Source of the DNA: Promethearchaeota archaeon | GTDB lineage: Archaea > Asgardarchaeota > Lokiarchaeia > Sigyniarchaeales > SOKP01 | Assembly: GCA_048940645.1 (NCBI GenBank) | Contig: JBHLOI010000026.1 | Span: 1-48,470 of the forward strand | Direction: 5' to 3' | DNA length: 48,470 bases | Part shown: positions 32,720 to 47,654 of the stretch, in pieces | How positions within the stretch are numbered: the stretch's first letter is position 1 | Layout of the letters: every line of letters starts with the position of its first letter | The notes under the pieces: model-generated | What the model was told of the DNA's origin: nothing | The model's input: only the letters and a program-made list of their open reading frames with translations | Databases searched by the model: none | Translations under genes and position numbers: made by a program

Positions 32720-33109
32720 TTACATAAGAGGATATCTTTTCGAAATTTCAGCTGAATAATATCGAAACACGGAAACAATTTTCCCTAAATCTTCAACCTT
32801 ACGACTGGCACCCATAAGAAAAAATCGACCTGCTGCACTTAGGATTATAAATGCATTTTCGCCTCTTAATACAACTTCAAGTAGATCTGTATATCCAAGT
32901 GAATCAATAGCATCTTGACCGCTCTGCATTACCACTGCACTTAAGCTAGAAAATAAATCAGGTTCTACTTCATAATCTGGAATGCAAGAAAAAGCGAGTC
33001 TCAGACCATCCCGAGTAACTAACGCGAGGGCTTCTAATTCTGTGTATTCAGTTATACTTCCAAGAAATTTAGATAAGCTGTGAGCTTCTTCTGGGCTTAA
33101 ATCACTCAT
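32720..33109 (-). CDS. Roadblock/LC7 protein
   Basis: LEALALVTRDGLRLA...LFSSLSAVV...LLEVVLRGENAFIIL..DLGKI. Confidence 0.85.
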   Translation of the reverse strand: MSDLSPEEAHSLSKFLGSITEYTELEALALVTRDGLRLAFSCIPDYEVEPDLFSSLSAVVMQSGQDAIDSLGYTDLLEVVLRGENAFIILSAAGRFFLMGASRKVEDLGKIVSVFRYYSAEISKRYPLM

Positions 33110-36426: not shown

Positions 36427-36942
36427 TTATTGCCACTTTATCTCTAATGTAGATAATTCTAATCCATTGACATGTTCTGTAGTAGTTTTAATATGAGTTT
36501 TGATGATTTTATACATTTCAAGTATACCCATATATATTCCTTCATAATAAGCAGGAAATCCATCTGAATCTAATTTTATTGTTATAAAATCATCGCCAGA
36601 GTCTAGTATTTGCGTTTTATGCCAATCTTCCTTCCTAAAATCTTCTTTTGGGTCATTCTTAACCGCAAATTTAAGTAATTCTACAGGTTTCTCGAACATT
36701 TCGAGTATTTGAGCAAAATCTTGCCCTTTAGCATTAATCACTTTCTTTCCAAGTACTCTCTGAGCAGGTTCACTCACTTTAGACAAATATTTTTGAAGAT
36801 TTTTAAAATCATACCAACCTTCTTCTGTCATATTATTAGTTTCTGTGTCTAATTCTTTTCTAGCAACTTCTGCAATTTCAGGATTGAACTCATTTAATAA
36901 TCTATCTATCATTAAAATATATCTACCTCTTACTTCTGCTAT
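36427..36942 (-). CDS. V4R/HNOB-like fold protein, paralog A (probable ATA start)
   Basis: AEVRG...EGWY...LGKK...FPAYYEGIYMGIL resembles V4R/heme-NO-binding-like ligand domains. The ORF-track GTG lies inside the GAGGTGA Shine-Dalgarno. Confidence 0.6.
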   Translation of the reverse strand: MAEVRGRYILMIDRLLNEFNPEIAEVARKELDTETNNMTEEGWYDFKNLQKYLSKVSEPAQRVLGKKVINAKGQDFAQILEMFEKPVELLKFAVKNDPKEDFRKEDWHKTQILDSGDDFITIKLDSDGFPAYYEGIYMGILEMYKIIKTHIKTTTEHVNGLELSTLEIKWQ

Positions 36943-37000
36943 AATTATCACCTCTTCAAATTAAATCTAAATTTAGTACATTTAAGCTATAAAAATAATT

Positions 37001-37135: not shown

Positions 37136-37651
37136 TTATTGCCACTTTATTTCTAAAGTGGAAATTTCCAATCCGTCAACATGTTCTGTTTTAGTTTTAA
37201 TATGAGTTCTGATGATTTTACACTTTTCAAGCATACCTAAATATACTCCTTCATAAAATGCTGGAAAACCATCGGAATCCAATTTAAGAGTTACAAAATC
37301 ATCTCCCGCGTCTAATACTTGCGTTTTATACCAGTTTTCCTTTTTAAAATCTTCTTTTGGATCATTTTCAACTGTGAACTTAATTAAATCTACTGGATTT
37401 TCGAAAGATTCAACTATTTCATCAAAAGCCTCGCCTGCGGCATAAACCATTTTTTTTCCCAATACTCGCTGAGCAGGCTCACTCACTTTAAATAAGTAAT
37501 TTCGAAGATTTGCATTACTATACCATCCATCTTCTTTCATTTCAGTAATATCTCTATCAAGTTCTTTTCTAGCGATTTCCGCAATTTCAGGATTGAATTC
37601 ATTTAATAGTTGGTCTACCATTAAAATATATCTACCTCTTACTTCTGCTAT
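37136..37651 (-). CDS. V4R/HNOB-like fold protein, paralog B (probable ATA start)
   Basis: Same length as paralog A and highly similar; AAGGTGA-TAATT-ATA start context. Confidence 0.6.
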   Translation of the reverse strand: MAEVRGRYILMVDQLLNEFNPEIAEIARKELDRDITEMKEDGWYSNANLRNYLFKVSEPAQRVLGKKMVYAAGEAFDEIVESFENPVDLIKFTVENDPKEDFKKENWYKTQVLDAGDDFVTLKLDSDGFPAFYEGVYLGMLEKCKIIRTHIKTKTEHVDGLEISTLEIKWQ

Positions 37652-37705
37652 AATTATCACCTTTATTTAATTAATTTTTTTTTATTTTAAGTTAAAAATG
37701 TAATT

Positions 37706-37821: not shown

Positions 37822-39351
37822 TTACTCAACAAAATATTTTTTAACTAAAAATCCTACATCTTGCCAGTTTTCAATGTCATTACAAGTATTATCGATATCA
37901 TTAATAAGAACCATGTAGGTTGAATCAAATTCTTGAATTAAGGAAGATAATTTACGTTCATAAATAGTAAAGCTCTCTTTTACAATTAGAACAAATATAA
38001 TCTCCTTTGATTTATTTAAGTCAAATATAACCGTGCGATCTCCGTGATCAATTGACTTAATGTGAGTATCTCCTTGAAGAATTGCCTTTAAAATAGTCAT
38101 TAGTCCAATAATTCCACCTGAAATCAAAGATGAATCTCGATATTTCTCCGATCTTTCAAAGGAATAATCAAATAAAGGTATTCCTGATTTGCATATTATA
38201 AAAAGGCTAATTAAATTATCCTTCCATCTCTTAATAGGGATTTGAATTTTAATACACAATTCCTGTGGGATTTTATTGTCATCAATTACTATTTCCCAAT
38301 TATGTAATTTGAATATTTTTTTTGAAAACGAATTTATTATGGGTGTTAATGGGACAATTGACTGTTCTAAACTACAATTAACCTGTATATCTCCAACATT
38401 GTTATCAATTCTCGCTGATATTATAATATCTTTAACCTTATTACTTTCTAATAGATTCATCAATAAATCTTTGAAAGCTTTGTCCATTCGTAATTTATCG
38501 AAAGTTGAATATAGATCCTCACTGATATTCAAGCTAAAATTGACAGGATACGTTTCAAATTCCTTATTTACGAAGTTTATTGACTCGATTAAAACTTGTG
38601 TTAAATTATTAATTTTTTTGTTTAATATCAAATTATCTGACTCTGTTTCAGAAATGTTAACAATTTTTCCAACTAAATTTAAAGAATTTTCGCTACCTTC
38701 TTTAATCAAATCTAATAGATTCAAAGCTTCTTGATCTAAGAATTTCCTATAATCACTAATAAGAATTTCTGATGCATTTGCCATTATATTTAAAGGTGTT
38801 TTTAATTGCTCCGAAGTTTTAGCGGTCATATCTTTTTTTATAGAATTCATTTCCTTTAATCTTAGATTCTCATCTTTAATTATCTTTTCTACGATTTTTT
38901 TTTCGGTTATATCATATAATATAATTTGGATGAACTTTTTTTTTTTAATTTTTATCGAAGAGAAAAACAATTCTATCCAAGTTTTTAAACCCTTTTGATT
39001 GATAAATTCTAATTCAAAAACCTCAGAAAAGTCAATTGAAATTACATTATCGATTATTTCATCAATTCTTAATTTCCTTTCTTCCGTGATAATAAACAGG
39101 TCATAAAAAAATTTCTTTAATAGATTATCTGAAGATTTTTGTAAGTATAGTTCTGTGGCTTTGTTACAATAATATATTTTCTTATTCAGATCTAATAAAA
39201 TGATGGAAAGTGGAAAACAGTCCAATAAAATCTGAAAATTTTCTTCGCTATCAATATTAAGTTCCTGAAAAGATTCTGTCTGTTTATTTACATTAGAGTA
39301 TTTATCAATAGTTACATCACTTTTCATTAAGTATATTGAGATTAATCCCAT
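37822..39351 (-). CDS. PAS + pseudo-histidine kinase (His-less DHp, truncated ATPase) + longin-like domain
   Basis: PAS/PAC present (YCNKAT...IILYDITEKK). H-box reads SEQLKTPL instead of SHELKTPL, and no DxGxG/GxGL boxes. The C-terminal SLFIICKSGIPLFDYSF..SSLISGGIIG..IKSIDHGDRTVIF region is longin-like. Start may be the ATG at 39327. Confidence 0.75.
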   Translation of the reverse strand: MGLISIYLMKSDVTIDKYSNVNKQTESFQELNIDSEENFQILLDCFPLSIILLDLNKKIYYCNKATELYLQKSSDNLLKKFFYDLFIITEERKLRIDEIIDNVISIDFSEVFELEFINQKGLKTWIELFFSSIKIKKKKFIQIILYDITEKKIVEKIIKDENLRLKEMNSIKKDMTAKTSEQLKTPLNIMANASEILISDYRKFLDQEALNLLDLIKEGSENSLNLVGKIVNISETESDNLILNKKINNLTQVLIESINFVNKEFETYPVNFSLNISEDLYSTFDKLRMDKAFKDLLMNLLESNKVKDIIISARIDNNVGDIQVNCSLEQSIVPLTPIINSFSKKIFKLHNWEIVIDDNKIPQELCIKIQIPIKRWKDNLISLFIICKSGIPLFDYSFERSEKYRDSSLISGGIIGLMTILKAILQGDTHIKSIDHGDRTVIFDLNKSKEIIFVLIVKESFTIYERKLSSLIQEFDSTYMVLINDIDNTCNDIENWQDVGFLVKKYFVE

Positions 39352-40207
39352 TTATTAATTCATAATATCTAGCACGGAGGGTAGAATCGGAGATCCCCAC
39401 GATGTCACTAATCCTTTTTTGTCCTATTCTTTTTCCATTAAATTTTGAAGCGAGATATATTGCGCCACCACATATGCCATTAGGATTAGTTCCATCAATT
39501 GAATTACTCTTTAGATATTCATCTAATATCTTATAGGTCAATTTTTCTATGGCAAATTCTAATCCTAAATCTGTAATAAATTTTGAAACCCTCGCAATAG
39601 GATTCTGAATTGGAATTTTTAAATTTAAAACTTTAATTAAACTGCTATAATAACGATTAAATCTTTTTTCATTTATTGAAGTTTCATCAAGAAATTCACT
39701 TAATGCTCTCGGAATGTTATGTATTTTGCAGATGTAATATAAACAAACAGTTATTATACCTTTAATTGTTCTACCTTTTATTAAACTCTTATTAAGTGCT
39801 TCTTTATAGAGTTTAAAGGCTTCCTTGACAAAATAACTAGGTAAACTTAATTTATTATTTAATCTCTTTAATTCTATTAAAGCTATTAATAAATTCTTTT
39901 TATCCCAAGGTAAATGTGAGTTTAGTTTCAATGCTCTTTTTAAATTAGGATCATTAGCTTTTTTTTTTGTAATCAAATAGAGTCCCATATTTGGAAATTG
40001 TGAAGATACAGATCTATTTATTTGCTCTTTAGAGGAAATTTTAGGCTCATTAAGGGAATCAAGAAAAATCTTATCATCTGAGATTAATCCACACTGACAA
40101 CATACAGTTTCTCCTTTTTCAATTATTGTTATCAAAGGACCATTACATTCTGGGCAGAATTGTGAGCCACGATATTCTATTTTTTCAATTAGAGTAAATT
40201 TTATCAC
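39317..40207 (-). CDS. tfb: Divergent transcription factor B (TFB/TFIIB) paralog
   Basis: CPEC..GETVCCQCG zinc ribbon and two cyclin repeats (LIKGRTIKG..YYICK..IPRAL; GTNPNGICGGAIYLAS..SDSTLRARYYEL). B-reader is degenerate. Start uncertain. Confidence 0.88.
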   Translation of the reverse strand: MIKFTLIEKIEYRGSQFCPECNGPLITIIEKGETVCCQCGLISDDKIFLDSLNEPKISSKEQINRSVSSQFPNMGLYLITKKKANDPNLKRALKLNSHLPWDKKNLLIALIELKRLNNKLSLPSYFVKEAFKLYKEALNKSLIKGRTIKGIITVCLYYICKIHNIPRALSEFLDETSINEKRFNRYYSSLIKVLNLKIPIQNPIARVSKFITDLGLEFAIEKLTYKILDEYLKSNSIDGTNPNGICGGAIYLASKFNGKRIGQKRISDIVGISDSTLRARYYELINGINLNILNEK

Positions 40208-40243
40208 CTACCTTAGTTCAATTTTTATAAAAATGAAAGAAAT

Positions 40244-40705
40244 CTACACATCAGATGGAATTTCAACATTGATCTTGTCTTCTTCATTCGATTGAAAAAA
40301 ATTTAGGAGTTTTTGAGCGATTTGCTTTAATTCAAAAAGAATTACACTAATATTCAAATTCACAGAAAATAACGTTAAAAGAGATATATCATCCTTAACA
40401 TTTTCCATTAAAATGATAAAACTATCATTATCTAATTGATGACCTGCTTGTATTGTTAAATTTTTTACGCAATGGGTATTATTTAGTAGATTTATACCTG
40501 AATTAGCTAGCGAGATAATAGTTGCGTTCACAGCAGCTATGTTTTGATCAAAATGTTTATTTTTATTTACTGAAACTCCTTGATCCACTGCAATTTCTAG
40601 ACCATCATTGTTAAATAGAATTGTATAATTTGTCCCTGTCCTTTCTCTGAATGATTTAAGAATTGATGTGATCTTCTCTTCTATACTATAGCTTCCATTA
40701 TGCAA
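40244..40705 (-). CDS. Roadblock/LC7-like protein
   Basis: TILFNNDGLEIA..IAAVNATIISLA..NLNISVILFEL. Probable TTG start 5 nt after GAGGTGA, overlapping the GTPase stop. Confidence 0.75.
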   Translation of the reverse strand: MHNGSYSIEEKITSILKSFRERTGTNYTILFNNDGLEIAVDQGVSVNKNKHFDQNIAAVNATIISLANSGINLLNNTHCVKNLTIQAGHQLDNDSFIILMENVKDDISLLTLFSVNLNISVILFELKQIAQKLLNFFQSNEEDKINVEIPSDV

Positions 40706-41336
40706 CAGCTTCACCTCTTAATTTTACCTCATCAGAATCATTAATTATTGTTTTAAGTATTTCTATTATCGCATCTTTGATTCCGATATTATTTTTTGCT
40801 GATCCTTCATAGACATTCTCCCCTATCATTGTTGAGATCAATTCTCCTCCATTATAATCCTCTCTATCTGACTTATTAGCTATAATCTTGAGTGGTATAT
40901 TTTTCTCTAAACTTATTCTTACTTCCTCAAGTATTGCCATTGCATTTCCGATATTGCCTAAATCACATCCGTCAATTAACATAAGGACACCATCACTTCC
41001 TTTAGCTAATACTTTTCGAACAGTTTTAAATTGTATTTGACCAGGACTTCCCTTGATTTCAAAATCTAAAACATGCCATCCAATATATTCATTTTTATCT
41101 CTCAAGTATTCTACTTTGCTCATAATAACACCCTCAGTTTCTTTATTTAAATTCGGTCTAGCCCAAACAAGTCTTCCTAAATCAAATCCAGTTGTTGTGT
41201 GTGTTTTACCAGGTTCATATTCTTCAGCTAATTTAGTTTCTACAGATATTGCTTTATCATCAAGAGTATGGATTAGAGTTGTTTTGCCAGCATTGAAAAA
41301 TCCTGTAACAAATATTTTTAACTTTTTTCCTTCCAT
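40698..41336 (-). CDS. Small GTPase (MglA/CvnD-like group) with an inter-switch insertion
   Basis: GFFNAGKTT, TTTGFDLGRL, GSPGQ, NKSD, SAK. Confidence 0.88.
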   Translation of the reverse strand: MEGKKLKIFVTGFFNAGKTTLIHTLDDKAISVETKLAEEYEPGKTHTTTGFDLGRLVWARPNLNKETEGVIMSKVEYLRDKNEYIGWHVLDFEIKGSPGQIQFKTVRKVLAKGSDGVLMLIDGCDLGNIGNAMAILEEVRISLEKNIPLKIIANKSDREDYNGGELISTMIGENVYEGSAKNNIGIKDAIIEILKTIINDSDEVKLRGEAVA

Positions 41337-41587
41337 ATTCTTAAAATCCCCAAATTTCGATTAAAATAAAATTATAATTTTATAAAAATAAATTTTGATT
41401 TATAGATATAATTCTCTCTTCGTAAAATTCTTATAAAATTATTAAAATAATCTAGGAATTTATATATAAACTTTTTTAAACTTTTCGATAATTCGAGATA
41501 TTTATCAAAAAACATATATTTAAAAACAAATTCTTTCACATTTTATATAAATTAATTATAAGAATATAAAAATTGGAGGATCTTTAT

Positions 41588-41953
41588 ATGAGTGCAAAAA
41601 TAGAGAAAATGGTTTCTATCTTGAAAGAGTTAGAAAAAAATTGTGAAATTGATAATAGTGCCTTAGTTTCATTAAAAGGTCAGATGATGGCAAGTGCTTT
41701 ACACAACGATGTTGACGAAAAAGGTTTAGCAGCTATGACTGCAGCATTATCATCTGTAGGAAACAGAGTAGCTGATACCTTACAATCCGGTAGAACTGAT
41801 TCAATCACTTTAGCTGGTCAAGATAAATTAATAATCTTACATCAGTTAACAGATGCAGTGTTAATAGCTTTAGCTCCAGCGGATGCTAAAATAGGATTAA
41901 TCGATTTTGAAATAAATATGGCATTGGATAAAATTAGGATGGTTTTGGGTTGA
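41588..41953 (+). CDS. Roadblock/LC7 protein
   Basis: SALVSLKGQMMASAL..LAAMTAAL..AKIGLI; ATG at 41588 downstream of GGAGG. Confidence 0.88.
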   Translation: MSAKIEKMVSILKELEKNCEIDNSALVSLKGQMMASALHNDVDEKGLAAMTAALSSVGNRVADTLQSGRTDSITLAGQDKLIILHQLTDAVLIALAPADAKIGLIDFEINMALDKIRMVLG

Positions 41954-42039
41954 AATCTTCAAAAATTTAAATATTTTTTATTAACATTGAGAGCCTGGAT
42001 TGAAAAATTTAAATTAATTATAAATAATGGGTGTGAAAT

Positions 42040-42489
42040 ATTAGCGAAATAAGAGATAATCTGATTAATTTACTAAATGATTTGAGTAAAGAAATTCCTA
42101 TCATTAGTTCTAGTTTAATAACTGAAGATGGAATAGTAATTGCTGGAAATAGTAACTCAAATGATTTTGACGAAGAAATTAGGATGAATTTCGCAGCAAT
42201 ATCGGCAAGTATTTTATCCATGGCTGAAAGAGGTATAGAAATTATTAACAACAATAAAATTCTAGAACAAATCAAAATAGATGCGGGTTTAGATGAGAAT
42301 AGAGATGCGGATTTCACAATATTAATCACTAGAGTCTATTCCAATGTGCTACTACAAGTTATTTTTACAAAATCAACAAATATTGGATTAATTCAATATG
42401 AAGCGAGTAAAATAATAAAAAAAATTAAAAGCTTTTTAAGTAATGACACGTCTAGGGAATTTTTCTTAAGTTTAGGTTCTCTCACGTAG
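42040..42489 (+). CDS. Roadblock/LC7-like protein (probable ATT start at 42040)
   Basis: SSSLITEDGIVIA..FAAISASILSMA..TNIGLI. The N-terminal helix SEIRDNLINLLNDL is encoded upstream of the TTG at 42082. Confidence 0.8.
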   Translation: MSEIRDNLINLLNDLSKEIPIISSSLITEDGIVIAGNSNSNDFDEEIRMNFAAISASILSMAERGIEIINNNKILEQIKIDAGLDENRDADFTILITRVYSNVLLQVIFTKSTNIGLIQYEASKIIKKIKSFLSNDTSREFFLSLGSLT

Positions 42490-42540
42490 TATAAATATAT
42501 TAACAATTACAAACTAAAAAAATGAGGTTTATTAATTCAA

Positions 42541-44025
42541 ATGACGGAAAAGGAAGAAGGAAAAGAATTAAACAGTAAGTCTGAGTTAATAATTGTAAAA
42601 GAAAAGTTTTACGAAGAAGAAAACATCAGTCCTGAAGTACAGAAAGTACTTGATGAAGTGTTTAACGATATGATTGTTAATGAACCTCATAGGTTTGAAT
42701 TTGAAGAAAATTGCCAGCAAACATCTGATAATAACGAATCACTTCAGAATAAAGAAGATATTGATCTAATTAAAGAAAAGGAGAAATTTTACAGTGAAGT
42801 TAATCTCAGTTCTGAGGTAAAGAAAATACTCGATAGTGTATTTAATGAGATGATCTCTCCTGAAGCAAATCAATCAATTACGGTATCCAATGATCAAAAG
42901 ACAAATAAAATTATCAAAGTGGCAGAACCTCTAATAAAAGCTACAAAAGGTAAAGCTGATGAAAAATCAAAACAATCCCTCTTAAAAATTGAAGAAATAA
43001 TACAAAAGGAATTAGAGTTAGAAAAAGCAATAGCAAAATATCAAGAATTAATTTCCAATTTTGAACAAAAGACAAAAGCAACTGAAGAATCAAAATTAAT
43101 GTTTGAGAATCGTTTAAAAGAATTAGAAGAGACTAAATTGGAATTTGAAGAAAGGGGTATGAAGCTTGAACAAGCTAGGAATTCCTTTATGCAATTAAGT
43201 ACTAAAGTTGAAGAAAGAAAACTTGAACTTGAGCAACGAGAAAAGAACGTAAGTCAGATCCAGAGGGAGTTAGAAGGATCAAGGATAAAGTTTGAACAAG
43301 AAAAGAAAACTTGGGATAAAATTCAAAGAAAAAATAGGAAAATGCAAGCTAAAAATGCTGAAACTGTTTTAGAACAGATAGAAACTGATATTATTGATTA
43401 TTCAGAACCTGTTTATACAACTGACGCGACTCAACTTACTTCGGAAATTGTTCAAATGGAACGAGGAAAAGTTGAAATATTAAAAGATATTCTCCAACAA
43501 TTATCATACCAAGGAAATTTCCAATCTTGCTTTTTAATTGATGGGCAAGGAATGATCATTTCTGAATATTCTAAAACAGAAATGGATGCTCTTGCTATAG
43601 GTGCTATGTTTTCTTTAGTTTGCACAACTGTTTTAAGAACTGTAAGAAGTTTAAGTTTGAATGAATTAGAATACTTTAAATTATCTTCTCTAAATGGGGA
43701 ATTTATTATTAGAAATATTGATATCCTTAATTATGAGAGAAACTTTATCCTTTTAGCTTATTATAACGATCTTGATTCAGACTTACCTTCAAATTCAGGT
43801 TTTAAATTAAATAAAAAACAGATAAAAAGAATTATTAAAAGCATTAAAACAGATTTTTATGACTTAAGAAAATCTACTAAGATTTCTTGGGTTTTTGATA
43901 ATATTATAGAAAAGGTTGATTTTTTAAAGCAAAAATATAATCATGTTGATGGGGATATCAATTTAATTAGATTAAATCTCATGAACAAGGCATCAATAAA
44001 AATACGAGAATTGTTCGAAAGGTAA
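42541..44025 (+). CDS. Protein with tandem N-terminal repeats, a long coiled coil and a roadblock domain
   Basis: KEKFY..N(I/L)S.EV.K(V/I)LD.VFN(D/E)MI occurs twice, 60 aa apart. E/K-rich heptads follow. CFLIDGQGMII..AIGAMFS is roadblock-like. Confidence 0.75.
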   Translation: MTEKEEGKELNSKSELIIVKEKFYEEENISPEVQKVLDEVFNDMIVNEPHRFEFEENCQQTSDNNESLQNKEDIDLIKEKEKFYSEVNLSSEVKKILDSVFNEMISPEANQSITVSNDQKTNKIIKVAEPLIKATKGKADEKSKQSLLKIEEIIQKELELEKAIAKYQELISNFEQKTKATEESKLMFENRLKELEETKLEFEERGMKLEQARNSFMQLSTKVEERKLELEQREKNVSQIQRELEGSRIKFEQEKKTWDKIQRKNRKMQAKNAETVLEQIETDIIDYSEPVYTTDATQLTSEIVQMERGKVEILKDILQQLSYQGNFQSCFLIDGQGMIISEYSKTEMDALAIGAMFSLVCTTVLRTVRSLSLNELEYFKLSSLNGEFIIRNIDILNYERNFILLAYYNDLDSDLPSNSGFKLNKKQIKRIIKSIKTDFYDLRKSTKISWVFDNIIEKVDFLKQKYNHVDGDINLIRLNLMNKASIKIRELFER

Positions 44026-44074: not shown

Positions 44075-44464
44075 ATGACTGAAAGTGAAGTAAAATTTGT
44101 TGAATCTATGAAATTGAAATATGAGCAATTGAACAGTAAGGAAAATTTTAAAGAAAAATGGAAAGATGAAAAGTTTAAAATTCTCCTGAATCCTAAGGAT
44201 TCAGATCATGCTGCTCTAATTTCAGTTGAAAAGGGTAATATTTCTGTTCAAGGAATAAAAAATAACCCTAAAAACAACATTGAGAAAGAATCACTAAATT
44301 GGGATGCATTAATGCAAACAACTCTAGAAATATTCGCACAAATGAACGAAGGGAAACTCTCAAGGGGGGATATAACAAAAAAAATGATTACTGGTAAGAT
44401 TAAACTTAAAAATCCCACTTTTTTAGCGAAACTTTCTGATTTAGATGCTTTATTAAAAGAATAA
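44075..44464 (+). CDS. SCP2 sterol/lipid-binding domain protein
   Basis: ISVEKGNISV...DALMQTTLEIF...MITGKIKLK pattern; GGAGG Shine-Dalgarno. Confidence 0.7.
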   Translation: MTESEVKFVESMKLKYEQLNSKENFKEKWKDEKFKILLNPKDSDHAALISVEKGNISVQGIKNNPKNNIEKESLNWDALMQTTLEIFAQMNEGKLSRGDITKKMITGKIKLKNPTFLAKLSDLDALLKE

Positions 44465-44696
44465 ACAAGATAGTATTTCTTTTTTTTTTAAAATTTAATA
44501 ACTATCTAGTCTTCATTTTTTATAAAAAAAGTCAATTAATAGTATTTAATCACAATTTAACCTATTATCAGTCTCATTATAGAATTTTTTGGTTTTAATT
44601 ATATAAATTTTTATAAACAAACTGTATAAATATATAATCCAAAACTACTTTTTTATATATAAATATTTTTCACCAATTGAATTAGTGATTCTGTTT

Positions 44697-45527
44697 ATGG
44701 AAGAATTAAAGAAGACAAAAGATATGGAGCGCTATGAGAAAGAAACCGGTAAAAAAGCAATCTGGCATGGTAATATAACTGAAAGCTATAAAAAGTGGCA
44801 AAAAGAGAAAGAAATTTATGGGATAGGAAAGAAGGGTATTGGAATCTTAATAAATAACGATATTAAAAAAAAATGGAAGAGGTTAGCTAAAGATAACAAC
44901 TTAACCCTCACTAATTTCATTATAAATGCCGTTGATTTTTATATTAAGAATAAATTAAAACGAGATATTGAAAAAATCTTTAATAAAGTATCTCACGATT
45001 TAAAGGAATCGTTAACGGCTATTCAAGGTTATTCTCATTTAATTATTGAGAATGAATCGAAAGATTTAAATCCATCTGTATTAACTAAAATAAACGAAAT
45101 ATATACACATAGTCTTTCTCTAGAACAAAAGATAAATGAGTCTTTTTTTTCAGTTGAACCAGTACAAATTGACTATAAAATATTAATTGTAGAGGATGAT
45201 ATTACAACTTTAGCAATTTTAAACGATTTTTTTCAATCTAAAGGATATTCATCTAAAGGAGTAACCTCCGCAAATCAAGCATTATATGAATTAACCCGAG
45301 TTCATCCAAAAATTATTCTCTTAGATATTATTTTACCCGATATTGATGGTTTTGAGTTATGTAGTAAAATTAAAACGGATGATCAATTAACCAACATTCC
45401 AGTCTATTATATCACGGCAATACAAGAATCAGAAGTCTTAAAAAATTTAGAAGAAACTAGAGCAAATGGTTATTTTCTAAAGCCATTTAAATTTAAACAG
45501 TTTGAAGAGATATTTCCATTGCTTTAA
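44697..45527 (+). CDS. Response regulator with RHH-like + DHp(HisKA) + receiver domains, no kinase ATPase domain
   Basis: IKKKWKRLAKDNNLTLTNFIINAV (RHH-like); SHDLKESLTAIQGY (H-box); ILIVEDD, LLDIILPDIDG, KPF (REC). Confidence 0.8.
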   Translation: MEELKKTKDMERYEKETGKKAIWHGNITESYKKWQKEKEIYGIGKKGIGILINNDIKKKWKRLAKDNNLTLTNFIINAVDFYIKNKLKRDIEKIFNKVSHDLKESLTAIQGYSHLIIENESKDLNPSVLTKINEIYTHSLSLEQKINESFFSVEPVQIDYKILIVEDDITTLAILNDFFQSKGYSSKGVTSANQALYELTRVHPKIILLDIILPDIDGFELCSKIKTDDQLTNIPVYYITAIQESEVLKNLEETRANGYFLKPFKFKQFEEIFPLL

Positions 45528-45572: not shown

Positions 45573-47654
45573 TTAGTGTTTTGGTAATTTAACTATAAAA
45601 TTAGATCCTTTATTTCGACCCTCAGACTCAACAATAATCGTCCCTCCATGTAAATCTACAATTTTTTTGCAAATAAATAATCCTAATCCAATACCCTCAG
45701 TATTAAGTAACATTCCTTGCCCATACCTCTCAATCTTTCCAAATTCTTTAAATATCCTTAATTTTTCTTCATCAGTAAACCCGATCCCGGTATCTTTAAT
45801 AGAAATTTCAATGAAATCTAAACTTAAATCTTTTATGTTTATAAAAATCCTCCCCTGTGGAGGTGTGTACTTGATAGCATTCATTAATAGATTAGTAATA
45901 ACCTCTTGTATTTTATCATTATCAAGATTAATATTATAGGAATTTTGTTCAGTAAAATTTACTTTTATATTTCTTTCGTTTGCTAAAAATTTTACTTCTT
46001 CAATTGAATCAAAAATTATTTTTGTTAAATCTTCAATCGTTTTGTTTACTTCTATTTTTCGAGATTCTAACAGTGAAACATCAATTAGTGACTCAATGAG
46101 CCTTTTAAATCTAATTCCTCCACTCTGAATTATATTTAGATAATACCCTACTTTCTCATCAAAATGACTTTTATAGTTATTTAAAAGAAGGTCTACTGAA
46201 CCTATAATAGAAACCAAAGGAGTTCTAAGCTCATGGGAGGCTCTTCTCAATAACTCTCCTTTCATTCTATTCAATTCTATTAATTCTTTTTCAGCTTTCA
46301 ACCGTTCTGTGATATCTATAAATGAAATGCATATACTTGTTGGTGAGATGTAAAAAGCATGTACTTCATAAGTATTTTTATTGTAAGAAATTTGATCCGG
46401 CTTAATAGATTTCCGATCTAATGCTAAATTTGAGAAATTATCAGCAATTTTAACTCCTATAAAATCTGGAAAAGCCTCTTCTATAGTTTTATCAATAAAT
46501 TGTGCGTGGTTCAATCCAAGTACTTTATCCGCAGCAGGATTTGCTCCTCTAAAAATTAATTTTCCATCTTCTTTTAATTCATATATGTGCATACCTGCAG
46601 GGTTTGATTCAAAAATTTGTCTAAATTGGTCTTCAGCTTGCTTTTGTTTTTCTTCTGCTAATTTACGCTCAGTTATATCAACTCCCGAACTTAATATTCC
46701 TTGGATATTCCCACTATTGTCATAGATTAATGCATTATACCATTTAATCAACCTTATTTCCCCACTTTTAGTTAAAATTTCATTTATATAATATCGATCA
46801 AAATCTAAACCTTCGTTAATTGATTGATTAAATGCCTTTCTTAAACGTGCCCTTATCCTGCGTGGAATAAGCTTATTAAAATAATCTTGGTTAATTAATT
46901 CATCTTTTTTATATCCAAAAATTTCATAACCTTGTTTATTTAACAATACAATTTTTCCGCTTAAATCTAATCCAAGCATTATATCTCCTGCTAATTCAAA
47001 GTACATATTAGCTCTTGATTTTTCAATTTCTAAATTTTCTTTAAAAGTATTCAACTCCTCTTCAAAATAAATAAGAAATGGAAAAAATAAATAATAGACT
47101 GCAAATACTATATTGGCTACATAACTAAATTCCCACGCTCCTGGGAGATCTATTGAGGAAATTATTGTTGCAATTTCAGTTATTAAAGCAACTACTAATA
47201 ACATTAGCAAAGAAATATGCCTTAATCTTCTAAATCTTAAATAAAGTTTAAAATTTAAAAAAATAGCCAGAAGTATTAAACCTAAAATTATAATCTGGAT
47301 AGATATTATTAAAATAAGGTATGGACTTAAAAGAAATATTGGAAATAATACATTACTCTTATTAATTAATTCATTAGCGCTTTTTTTTGGAAAATAACGA
47401 AGATATTCATAGAAAAAGCTTATAATTAAAAATATTAAACTTATTAAAAAAATAAGATTTCCAATGATTCTATAAATATTGCTAATAAATTGCAAGAATA
47501 TAAATAGAGACCCAACCGGTAGTAGGATATACATGGGTAGATAAATTAACATTCTTTTTATCCTAATAGATATAACAACAAAAAATATTGTTCCAATAAA
47601 CATCAGCATGGCAATCTGAAAATTTAATGCTAATTCATTCAGCACGGTTATCAT
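45573..47654 (-). CDS. Membrane-bound PAS-PAS sensor histidine kinase
   Basis: About 6-7 hydrophobic segments, two PAS/PAC domains (DITER twice), SHELRTPL, NLLMNAIKY, DTGIG, GIGLGL. Confidence 0.95.
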   Translation of the reverse strand: MITVLNELALNFQIAMLMFIGTIFFVVISIRIKRMLIYLPMYILLPVGSLFIFLQFISNIYRIIGNLIFLISLIFLIISFFYEYLRYFPKKSANELINKSNVLFPIFLLSPYLILIISIQIIILGLILLAIFLNFKLYLRFRRLRHISLLMLLVVALITEIATIISSIDLPGAWEFSYVANIVFAVYYLFFPFLIYFEEELNTFKENLEIEKSRANMYFELAGDIMLGLDLSGKIVLLNKQGYEIFGYKKDELINQDYFNKLIPRRIRARLRKAFNQSINEGLDFDRYYINEILTKSGEIRLIKWYNALIYDNSGNIQGILSSGVDITERKLAEEKQKQAEDQFRQIFESNPAGMHIYELKEDGKLIFRGANPAADKVLGLNHAQFIDKTIEEAFPDFIGVKIADNFSNLALDRKSIKPDQISYNKNTYEVHAFYISPTSICISFIDITERLKAEKELIELNRMKGELLRRASHELRTPLVSIIGSVDLLLNNYKSHFDEKVGYYLNIIQSGGIRFKRLIESLIDVSLLESRKIEVNKTIEDLTKIIFDSIEEVKFLANERNIKVNFTEQNSYNINLDNDKIQEVITNLLMNAIKYTPPQGRIFINIKDLSLDFIEISIKDTGIGFTDEEKLRIFKEFGKIERYGQGMLLNTEGIGLGLFICKKIVDLHGGTIIVESEGRNKGSNFIVKLPKH

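Follow-up and report, generated by a model that had tools for sequence, protein, structure and literature searches.

A GTPase-roadblock island of Lokiarchaeia with an optional TFB paralog linked to two-component genes

MglA-like GTPases and roadblock proteins have already been described in Asgard archaea (PMC10933270). DNA-binding regulators are rare in archaea, and the way in which two-component sensing leads to transcription is poorly understood (PMC5847659). In the present study, we analysed a genomic island of a Promethearchaeota archaeon (class Lokiarchaeia; genome G000, assembly GCA_048940645.1) in which genes for a small GTPase, roadblock proteins and two-component proteins are combined with a gene for a paralog of the general transcription factor TFB. 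The island lies within a 48,470-nucleotide stretch of contig JBHLOI010000026.1 (positions 1 to 48,470, hereafter the window). Comparison of related genomes revealed that the GTPase and the TFB dissociate both ways; the TFB is a real but optional member of the locus, neither gene needs the other, and the TFB tracks two-component genes more closely than it tracks the GTPase.

The closest described systems and the layout of the island

The GTPase is a 212-aa single-domain protein (Pfam Ras, 9e-08), and its motifs fit MglA of Groups 2-5 of the MglA-MglB systems, as defined in PMC4316618. Its G1, G4 and G5 motifs are intact, G2 is of the TTT type, with Thr in the position of the arginine finger (all 43 sequences compared have T47 and T48), and G3 is GSPGQ, of the GxPGQ type, lacking Asp (G96 and G99 invariant, P98 and Q100 conserved in at least 90%, second position variable). 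The G4 and G5 motifs are NKSD and SAK, with N154, K155 and D157 invariant. PDB profile matches mix Arf-like entries with MglA (E 1e-15 to 1e-11). As in these groups, the gene is coupled to roadblocks with an Asp-Gly pair (RB1 and RB3). The island, likened to the groups by these motifs, differs from them in that its roadblock domains number four, its GTPase carries an insert of about 35 residues, and a longin pseudokinase and a TFB are encoded in it.

The actinobacterial conservons (CvnABCD) also unite a kinase-like protein, a roadblock protein and an MglA-type GTPase in one operon. However, (i) the canonical NKxD and SAK of the island GTPase contrast with the conservon-type NxFD (G4) and DAR (G5), (ii) a soluble PAS pseudokinase-longin protein is encoded in place of the membrane HAMP kinase CvnA with its LPxR motif, and (iii) no CvnC was seen in the island, which includes an RHH-HisKA-REC response regulator, whereas conservons have no regulator. 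Several different roadblock proteins accompany a small GTPase in Rag-Ragulator and around the Asgard Rag-like GTPases (PMC10933270) as well. A Rag identity was rejected nevertheless: the island GTPase has no fused roadblock or longin domain, no G3 aspartate and no match to Gtr1_RagA (PF04670), unlike a Rag-like protein of a relative, which does match this family. Thus, of the two comparisons made in an initial annotation of this DNA, the one with conservons and MglAB fits, and the designation "Rag/Ragulator-like" is not supported for a single-domain GTPase with MglA-type G2 and G3 motifs.

Longins fused to two-component domains, as well as a roadblock-GTPase-DENN operon, have been reported from Asgard archaea (bioRxiv 10.1101/2020.10.19.343400); TFB is not mentioned there, and no DENN gene was recognised in the island. 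The RHH-HisKA-REC regulators of Lokiarchaeum (PMC5847659) have the same architecture as the product of 44685-45527, but were not linked there to TFB paralogs. Sulfolobus TFB2 exemplifies specialised paralogs that may run their own gene set and be controlled through their expression (bioRxiv 10.64898/2026.09.06.749720). In the literature searched we found no description of the present arrangement or of a TFB-regulator link. The components have each been described, and the initial claim of an undescribed system would apply to their combination. The link to TFB is the new part; longin-two-component fusions, RHH-HisKA-REC regulators, MglA-like GTPases with roadblocks and specialised TFBs were already known. 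Further specialised archaeal TFB paralogs are TFB3 and the haloarchaeal TFBs, and we know of none encoded inside a GTPase or two-component operon.

The island is composed of the following features (window coordinates, strand):

37822-39351, minus: PAS-pseudo-histidine kinase-longin protein (His to Glu, no G boxes), assigned by domain search, ortholog alignment and models
39317-40207, minus: accessory TFB from a fast-evolving clade linked to signalling genes, with an altered recognition helix and six residues missing from the B-reader region; the Zn ribbon and both cyclin folds are preserved, and the start codon is uncertain
40244-40714, minus: roadblock RB1, MglB-like, with Asp-Gly pair; paralog of RB3
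40698-41336, minus: MglA-type small GTPase, G1-G5 intact; G2 and G3 are separated by a conserved insert of about 35 residues
41337-41587: divergent intergenic region
41588-41953, plus: roadblock RB2, the most conserved of the roadblocks (83% to genome G005)
42040-42489, plus: roadblock RB3 (listed start TTG 42082; ATT 42040 inferred)
42541-44025, plus: 494-aa protein with acidic N-terminus, coiled coil, roadblock domain and helical tail
44685-45527, plus: RHH-HisKA-REC response regulator (family named in PMC5847659), His and Asp intact; a conserved part of the island
45573-47654, minus: membrane PAS histidine kinase, convergent on the regulator, in a conserved position

All seven open reading frames of the initial annotation, which covered the island as far as 44025, exist where it had placed them. 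The regulator and the kinase, absent from that description, are part of the conserved locus.

Distribution of the TFB, the GTPase and the two-component genes

The GTPase subfamily was identified in 25 of 161 genomes of the class and 66 of 400 genomes of the phylum, usually amid roadblocks. A divergent layout occurs almost exclusively in one Lokiarchaeia family (f1). In other families the genes usually all run in one direction, in the order 156-aa gene, roadblock, GTPase, roadblock, roadblock, also in Thorarchaeota and in a genome matched to Ca. Harpocratesius repetitus FW102 (G044). Cassettes of this ancestral layout often neighbour genes for winged-helix proteins, V4R proteins or kinases, and no TFB was seen in any such locus inspected. 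In f1, the left arm consists of the GTPase, RB1, and a variable set (GNAT, a 220-aa protein, TFB, a kinase, the pseudokinase-longin protein), with GNAT following RB1 in most loci. The right arm carries the 156-aa gene, a Cys microprotein, RB2, RB3, the coiled-coil roadblock protein and the RHH-HisKA-REC regulator, accompanied by a convergent kinase. The window represents a stripped version, in which the TFB was kept and the GNAT, 220-aa and 156-aa genes and the microprotein were lost; the same reduced order is found in G005. The exact order GTPase-roadblock-TFB-pseudokinase occurs in 2 loci; as a signalling locus the island is conserved.

A second copy of the island, on contig C85 of the same genome, contains GNAT, and its left arm is without a TFB; the other half of this copy may be represented by a regulator-kinase pair located on C75. 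Roadblocks adjoin the GTPase in most loci, with none beside the copies of genus g21 (L083, L084, L087), where the same GTPase lies near a regulator-kinase pair and the stretches fetched contain no roadblock gene.

Among 21 divergent-type loci of f1 genomes, the TFB is present in 7 and absent from 11, and the other 3 are truncated by the ends of contigs (18 scorable). Five changes are needed to place TFB presence on the GTPase tree. Genomes G135 and G127 have nearly identical GTPases, and all that G135 keeps of the TFB is a 36-codon Zn-ribbon remnant (L069:5879-5986), 81% identical to the island TFB of G127; the gene was therefore deleted in place. Conversely, a TFB of the same clade is present in G008, G088 and G128 (completeness 92-100%), in which this GTPase was not found. 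The initial annotation had envisaged a self-contained switch with the TFB as its output: the TFB lineage is indeed linked to the locus, but with TFB missing from 11 of the 18 scorable loci, TFB persisting in three genomes where no such GTPase was found, and a DNA-binding-type RHH regulator already encoded in the island, this view is weakened. In G068 (L080:3384-4250), an RB1 roadblock is fused to a pseudokinase-longin fragment, followed by an extremely diverged TFB.

The island TFB contains a Zn ribbon, two cyclin repeats and a C-terminal helix-turn-helix (Pfam TFIIB, 2.9e-28, plus Zn ribbon), and is one of nine TFB-like genes of this genome. In place of the canonical B-reader (PEWRAF) and B-linker it has a short variant, further eroded here, that is common to a Loki expansion including the paralogs on C86, C117 and C57. 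The shortened B-reader was accordingly rejected as a special feature of the island TFB, since it is present in these three conserved paralogs. Six island TFBs group with three others in a single, fast-evolving clade (99/98), whose sister is the C86 paralog (93/97), and a TFB from a metagenome locus joined this clade in a second tree (100/99; sister 96/96). Alternative placements were rejected by approximately unbiased (AU) tests (p 0.004, 7e-05, 0.016), by which recent duplication of the C117 or C57 paralog was rejected as the origin of the TFB, although the long branches of the clade call for caution with tree tests. The G068 copy, too diverged to be placed, was left out of the careful trees, and those of G093 and G008 out of the second tree. 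Single-protein and hidden Markov model searches could not separate clade TFBs from the conserved paralogs; the inventory, which amounts to at least 10 of 135 family genomes with the unplaced G068 copy included, is thus a lower bound. The tree support shows that the TFB, initially described as dedicated, represents a distinct lineage linked to the locus and not a random neighbour.

The C86-type TFB is located beside RHH-HisKA-REC regulators, and divergently oriented, in 13 of 14 loci, usually facing a tandem pair of them (L040:8028-11564, G000:C86; L267-L279). As for the island clade, 9 of the 11 TFB genes of this type are immediate neighbours of a gene for a kinase, pseudokinase or receiver. 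Both sister TFB lineages are thus tied to two-component genes. In G088 (L265:4169-12215), the order is kinase, regulator, divergent TFB, kinase, with close homologs of the outer genes of the island and no GTPase or roadblock gene between them. This may represent the locus either before the GTPase module was inserted or after it was deleted. TGTGT/ACACA words were observed upstream of the C86-type TFB in all 13 loci, at 3.0 per 260 nt versus a background of 0.15; these are candidate RHH sites, and a candidate regulator-to-TFB cascade is present in all sampled loci of the family. A second, independent TFB-GTPase adjacency was detected in G068 (L277:1316-6871), where a C86-type TFB is directly followed by a Rag/Arf-like GTPase (461 aa) and flanked by a regulator and a kinase.

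Roadblock and pseudokinase-longin proteins, gene starts and neighbouring genes

The roadblock, pseudokinase and longin assignments of the initial annotation were all borne out, by different routes. RB2 was recognised outright by Pfam (Robl_LC7, 1e-07). RB1 and RB3 gave weak Pfam matches (0.048 and 0.019) and were tied to RB2 by profile comparison (E 4e-08 and 3e-10), as was the C-terminus of the 494-aa protein, through an ancestral fourth roadblock family (E 4.6e-18, then 4.5e-13). The product of 39351-37822 (Pfam PAS_9 and HisKA), with orthologs in 19 of 161 class genomes, departs from the pattern of phospho-His and N, G1 and G2 boxes of active histidine kinases. Glu occupies the phospho-His site and the G1/G2 boxes (ATP-lid glycines) are lost in all 14 aligned orthologs, i.e. 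the protein is kinase-dead by sequence, while the model retains the kinase fold. Its last 133 residues were modelled as a longin fold (pLDDT, the model confidence score, 81), with a five-strand sheet and the longin order of helices. The top VIA matches are all longins (7q3d_C: Z 14.1, root-mean-square deviation 2.5, 122 residues aligned; synbindin: Z 12.8).

The genes of the left arm are tightly packed. The GTPase gene (41336-40698) overlaps RB1 by 17 nt with GTG 40714 as the start of the latter and by 8 nt with TTG 40705, the likelier of the two; 36 nt separate RB1 from GTG 40207 of the TFB gene, which in turn overlaps the pseudokinase-longin gene by 35 nt (ATG 39351) or 11 nt (ATG 39327). 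The sole canonical start of the TFB gene is this GTG, lying within a GGTGA ribosome-binding motif (window 40185-40215). RB3 reaches the length of its orthologs only from ATT 42040 (window 42030-42082), which is probably its start, giving 149 aa. Since 13 of 30 such genes of this genome have no canonical start within eight codons, non-AUG starts seem to be common in it.

The region 41337-41587 lacks the 156-aa gene and the three-Cys microprotein that most relatives carry there. Two tandem 174-aa paralogs are located downstream of the left arm (36427-36951 and 37136-37660), with one homolog at the same place in G005. They have no Pfam match, their Atlas look-alikes are hypothetical proteins of Myxococcota (DUF2378 in 14% of one cluster), and their homology to the missing 156-aa gene was rejected, as no BLAST match was obtained. 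A 129-aa gene (44075-44464) not found in related loci is inserted ahead of the regulator; by eye its product resembles an SCP2-like lipid-binding domain, for which there is no Pfam support. A further roadblock-like gene with weak similarity to RB2 homologs (32720-33109) lies 5 kb from the island, outside the conserved layout.

Possible function of the island

We assign a probability of about 50% to the reading that an MglA-MglB module is nested in a two-component/TFB unit, with the TFB as an optional, co-expressed transcriptional output. The first module would be a pan-Asgard MglA-MglB-type switch, in which roadblock dimers set the nucleotide state of the GTPase and the PAS-pseudokinase-longin protein acts as a non-phosphorylating sensor, coupled to the switch by way of its longin domain or by forming pairs with a true kinase. 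The second would be a two-component unit of kinase, RHH-HisKA-REC regulator and TFB paralog. In one Lokiarchaeia family the former is located between the regulator and the TFB, and the kinase-regulator pair and the PAS-pseudokinase-longin/roadblock/GTPase switch would most likely read signals in one pathway. The TFB would be made when the left-arm operon, if co-transcribed, is switched on. As an optional amplifier it would shift initiation at a small set of promoters forming its regulon, and so broaden the transcriptional response; like other archaeal TFB paralogs, it would be controlled by expression and not by GTPase binding.

Several observations weigh against this interpretation. Eight of the 11 clade-type TFBs belong to a GTPase locus, G000 and G005 come out as a pair in the GTPase as well as in the TFB tree, and the genomes compared are incomplete and related. 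Kinase genes are common in these genomes, so that TFB-kinase adjacency is partly expected. TGTGT is not enriched in the divergent region of the island (0.08 per 260 nt versus a background of 0.15), and control of the left-arm operon by the regulator thus lacks sequence support; the absence of a regulator-type motif from this region weakens the proposed pathway. A motif search of the divergent region yielded nothing enriched beyond TATA-like AT words and no island-specific promoter motif for a TFB regulon, and a sigma-70 promoter and terminator scan, ill-suited to archaea, gave nothing above shuffles.

Erosion of the TFB gives rise to another, unlikely explanation, according to which the protein is impaired or inhibitory, binding TBP or polymerase with poor recognition of the B recognition element (BRE) and so dampening transcription, or is nearing loss under relaxed selection. 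The equivalent of Pyrococcus V280 is Ser and those of T278 and E279 are also changed, and none of these three positions varies among 35 C86/C57-type paralogs; Thr replaces the basic residue of the second G-K/R motif; and the B-reader is shorter by six residues. The recognition-helix substitutions vary between clade members and form no single new code, which fits drift or divergent specificities equally well. Repeated losses, the extreme divergence of the G068 copy and the lack of a canonical start in several copies point in the same direction. However, the frame is intact, and the four Zn-ribbon Cys and the equivalents of Q268, T281 and R283 are kept (Q268, V280 and R283 being BRE-contact residues). 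The identity to G005 is 52%, and other island genes have similar values (RB1, the pseudo-histidine kinase, the coiled-coil protein and the regulator, 42-53%); a dN/dS of about 0.2 in this comparison, with dS near saturation, indicates that the gene is under purifying selection. The reading of the gene as a pseudogene was rejected.

We regard as improbable that the GTPase, or the roadblock/longin platform, itself binds the TFB and releases or activates it according to nucleotide state, in the manner of partner-switching sigma/anti-sigma systems. The tight coupling of the four genes, the single origin of the TFB clade with its probable ancestral presence in the divergent layout, and the winged-helix neighbours of the ancestral cassettes are consistent with such control; the conserved, unexplained GTPase insert could be an effector surface, and a conservon GTPase in Mycobacterium binds the product of an adjoining gene (PMC4316618). 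But the GTPase is 61-72% identical across the family with or without the TFB, the clade TFBs share only about 42% identity with one another, and the TFB persists in G008, G088 and G128. Predicted complexes of the TFB with the GTPase, the longin or the regulator scored 0.00, which is no evidence either way. It is similarly doubtful that cell shape, polarity or protein acetylation is the target of the GTPase module, with the TFB as co-regulated cargo outside the pathway, as MglA-MglB control of polarity in Myxococcus (PMC10933270), the coiled-coil-roadblock protein and the frequent GNAT gene might suggest, since the window and G005 lost the GNAT, 156-aa and 220-aa genes yet kept a TFB whose lineage has a long-standing tie to two-component genes.

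Small GTPases, roadblocks and longins number in the dozens in Asgard genomes, and hardly any of their partners or outputs are known; the island names candidate partners. Direct control of the TFB by the GTPase, itself gated by the roadblocks and the PAS-pseudokinase-longin sensor, is improbable as we consider it; if true, it would amount to a new type of transcription switch, both G-protein-operated and sigma-like, in an Asgard archaeon. The association of two sister TFB lineages of Loki archaea with two-component genes and RHH-HisKA-REC regulators offers a concrete way for two-component sensing in archaea to reach transcription.

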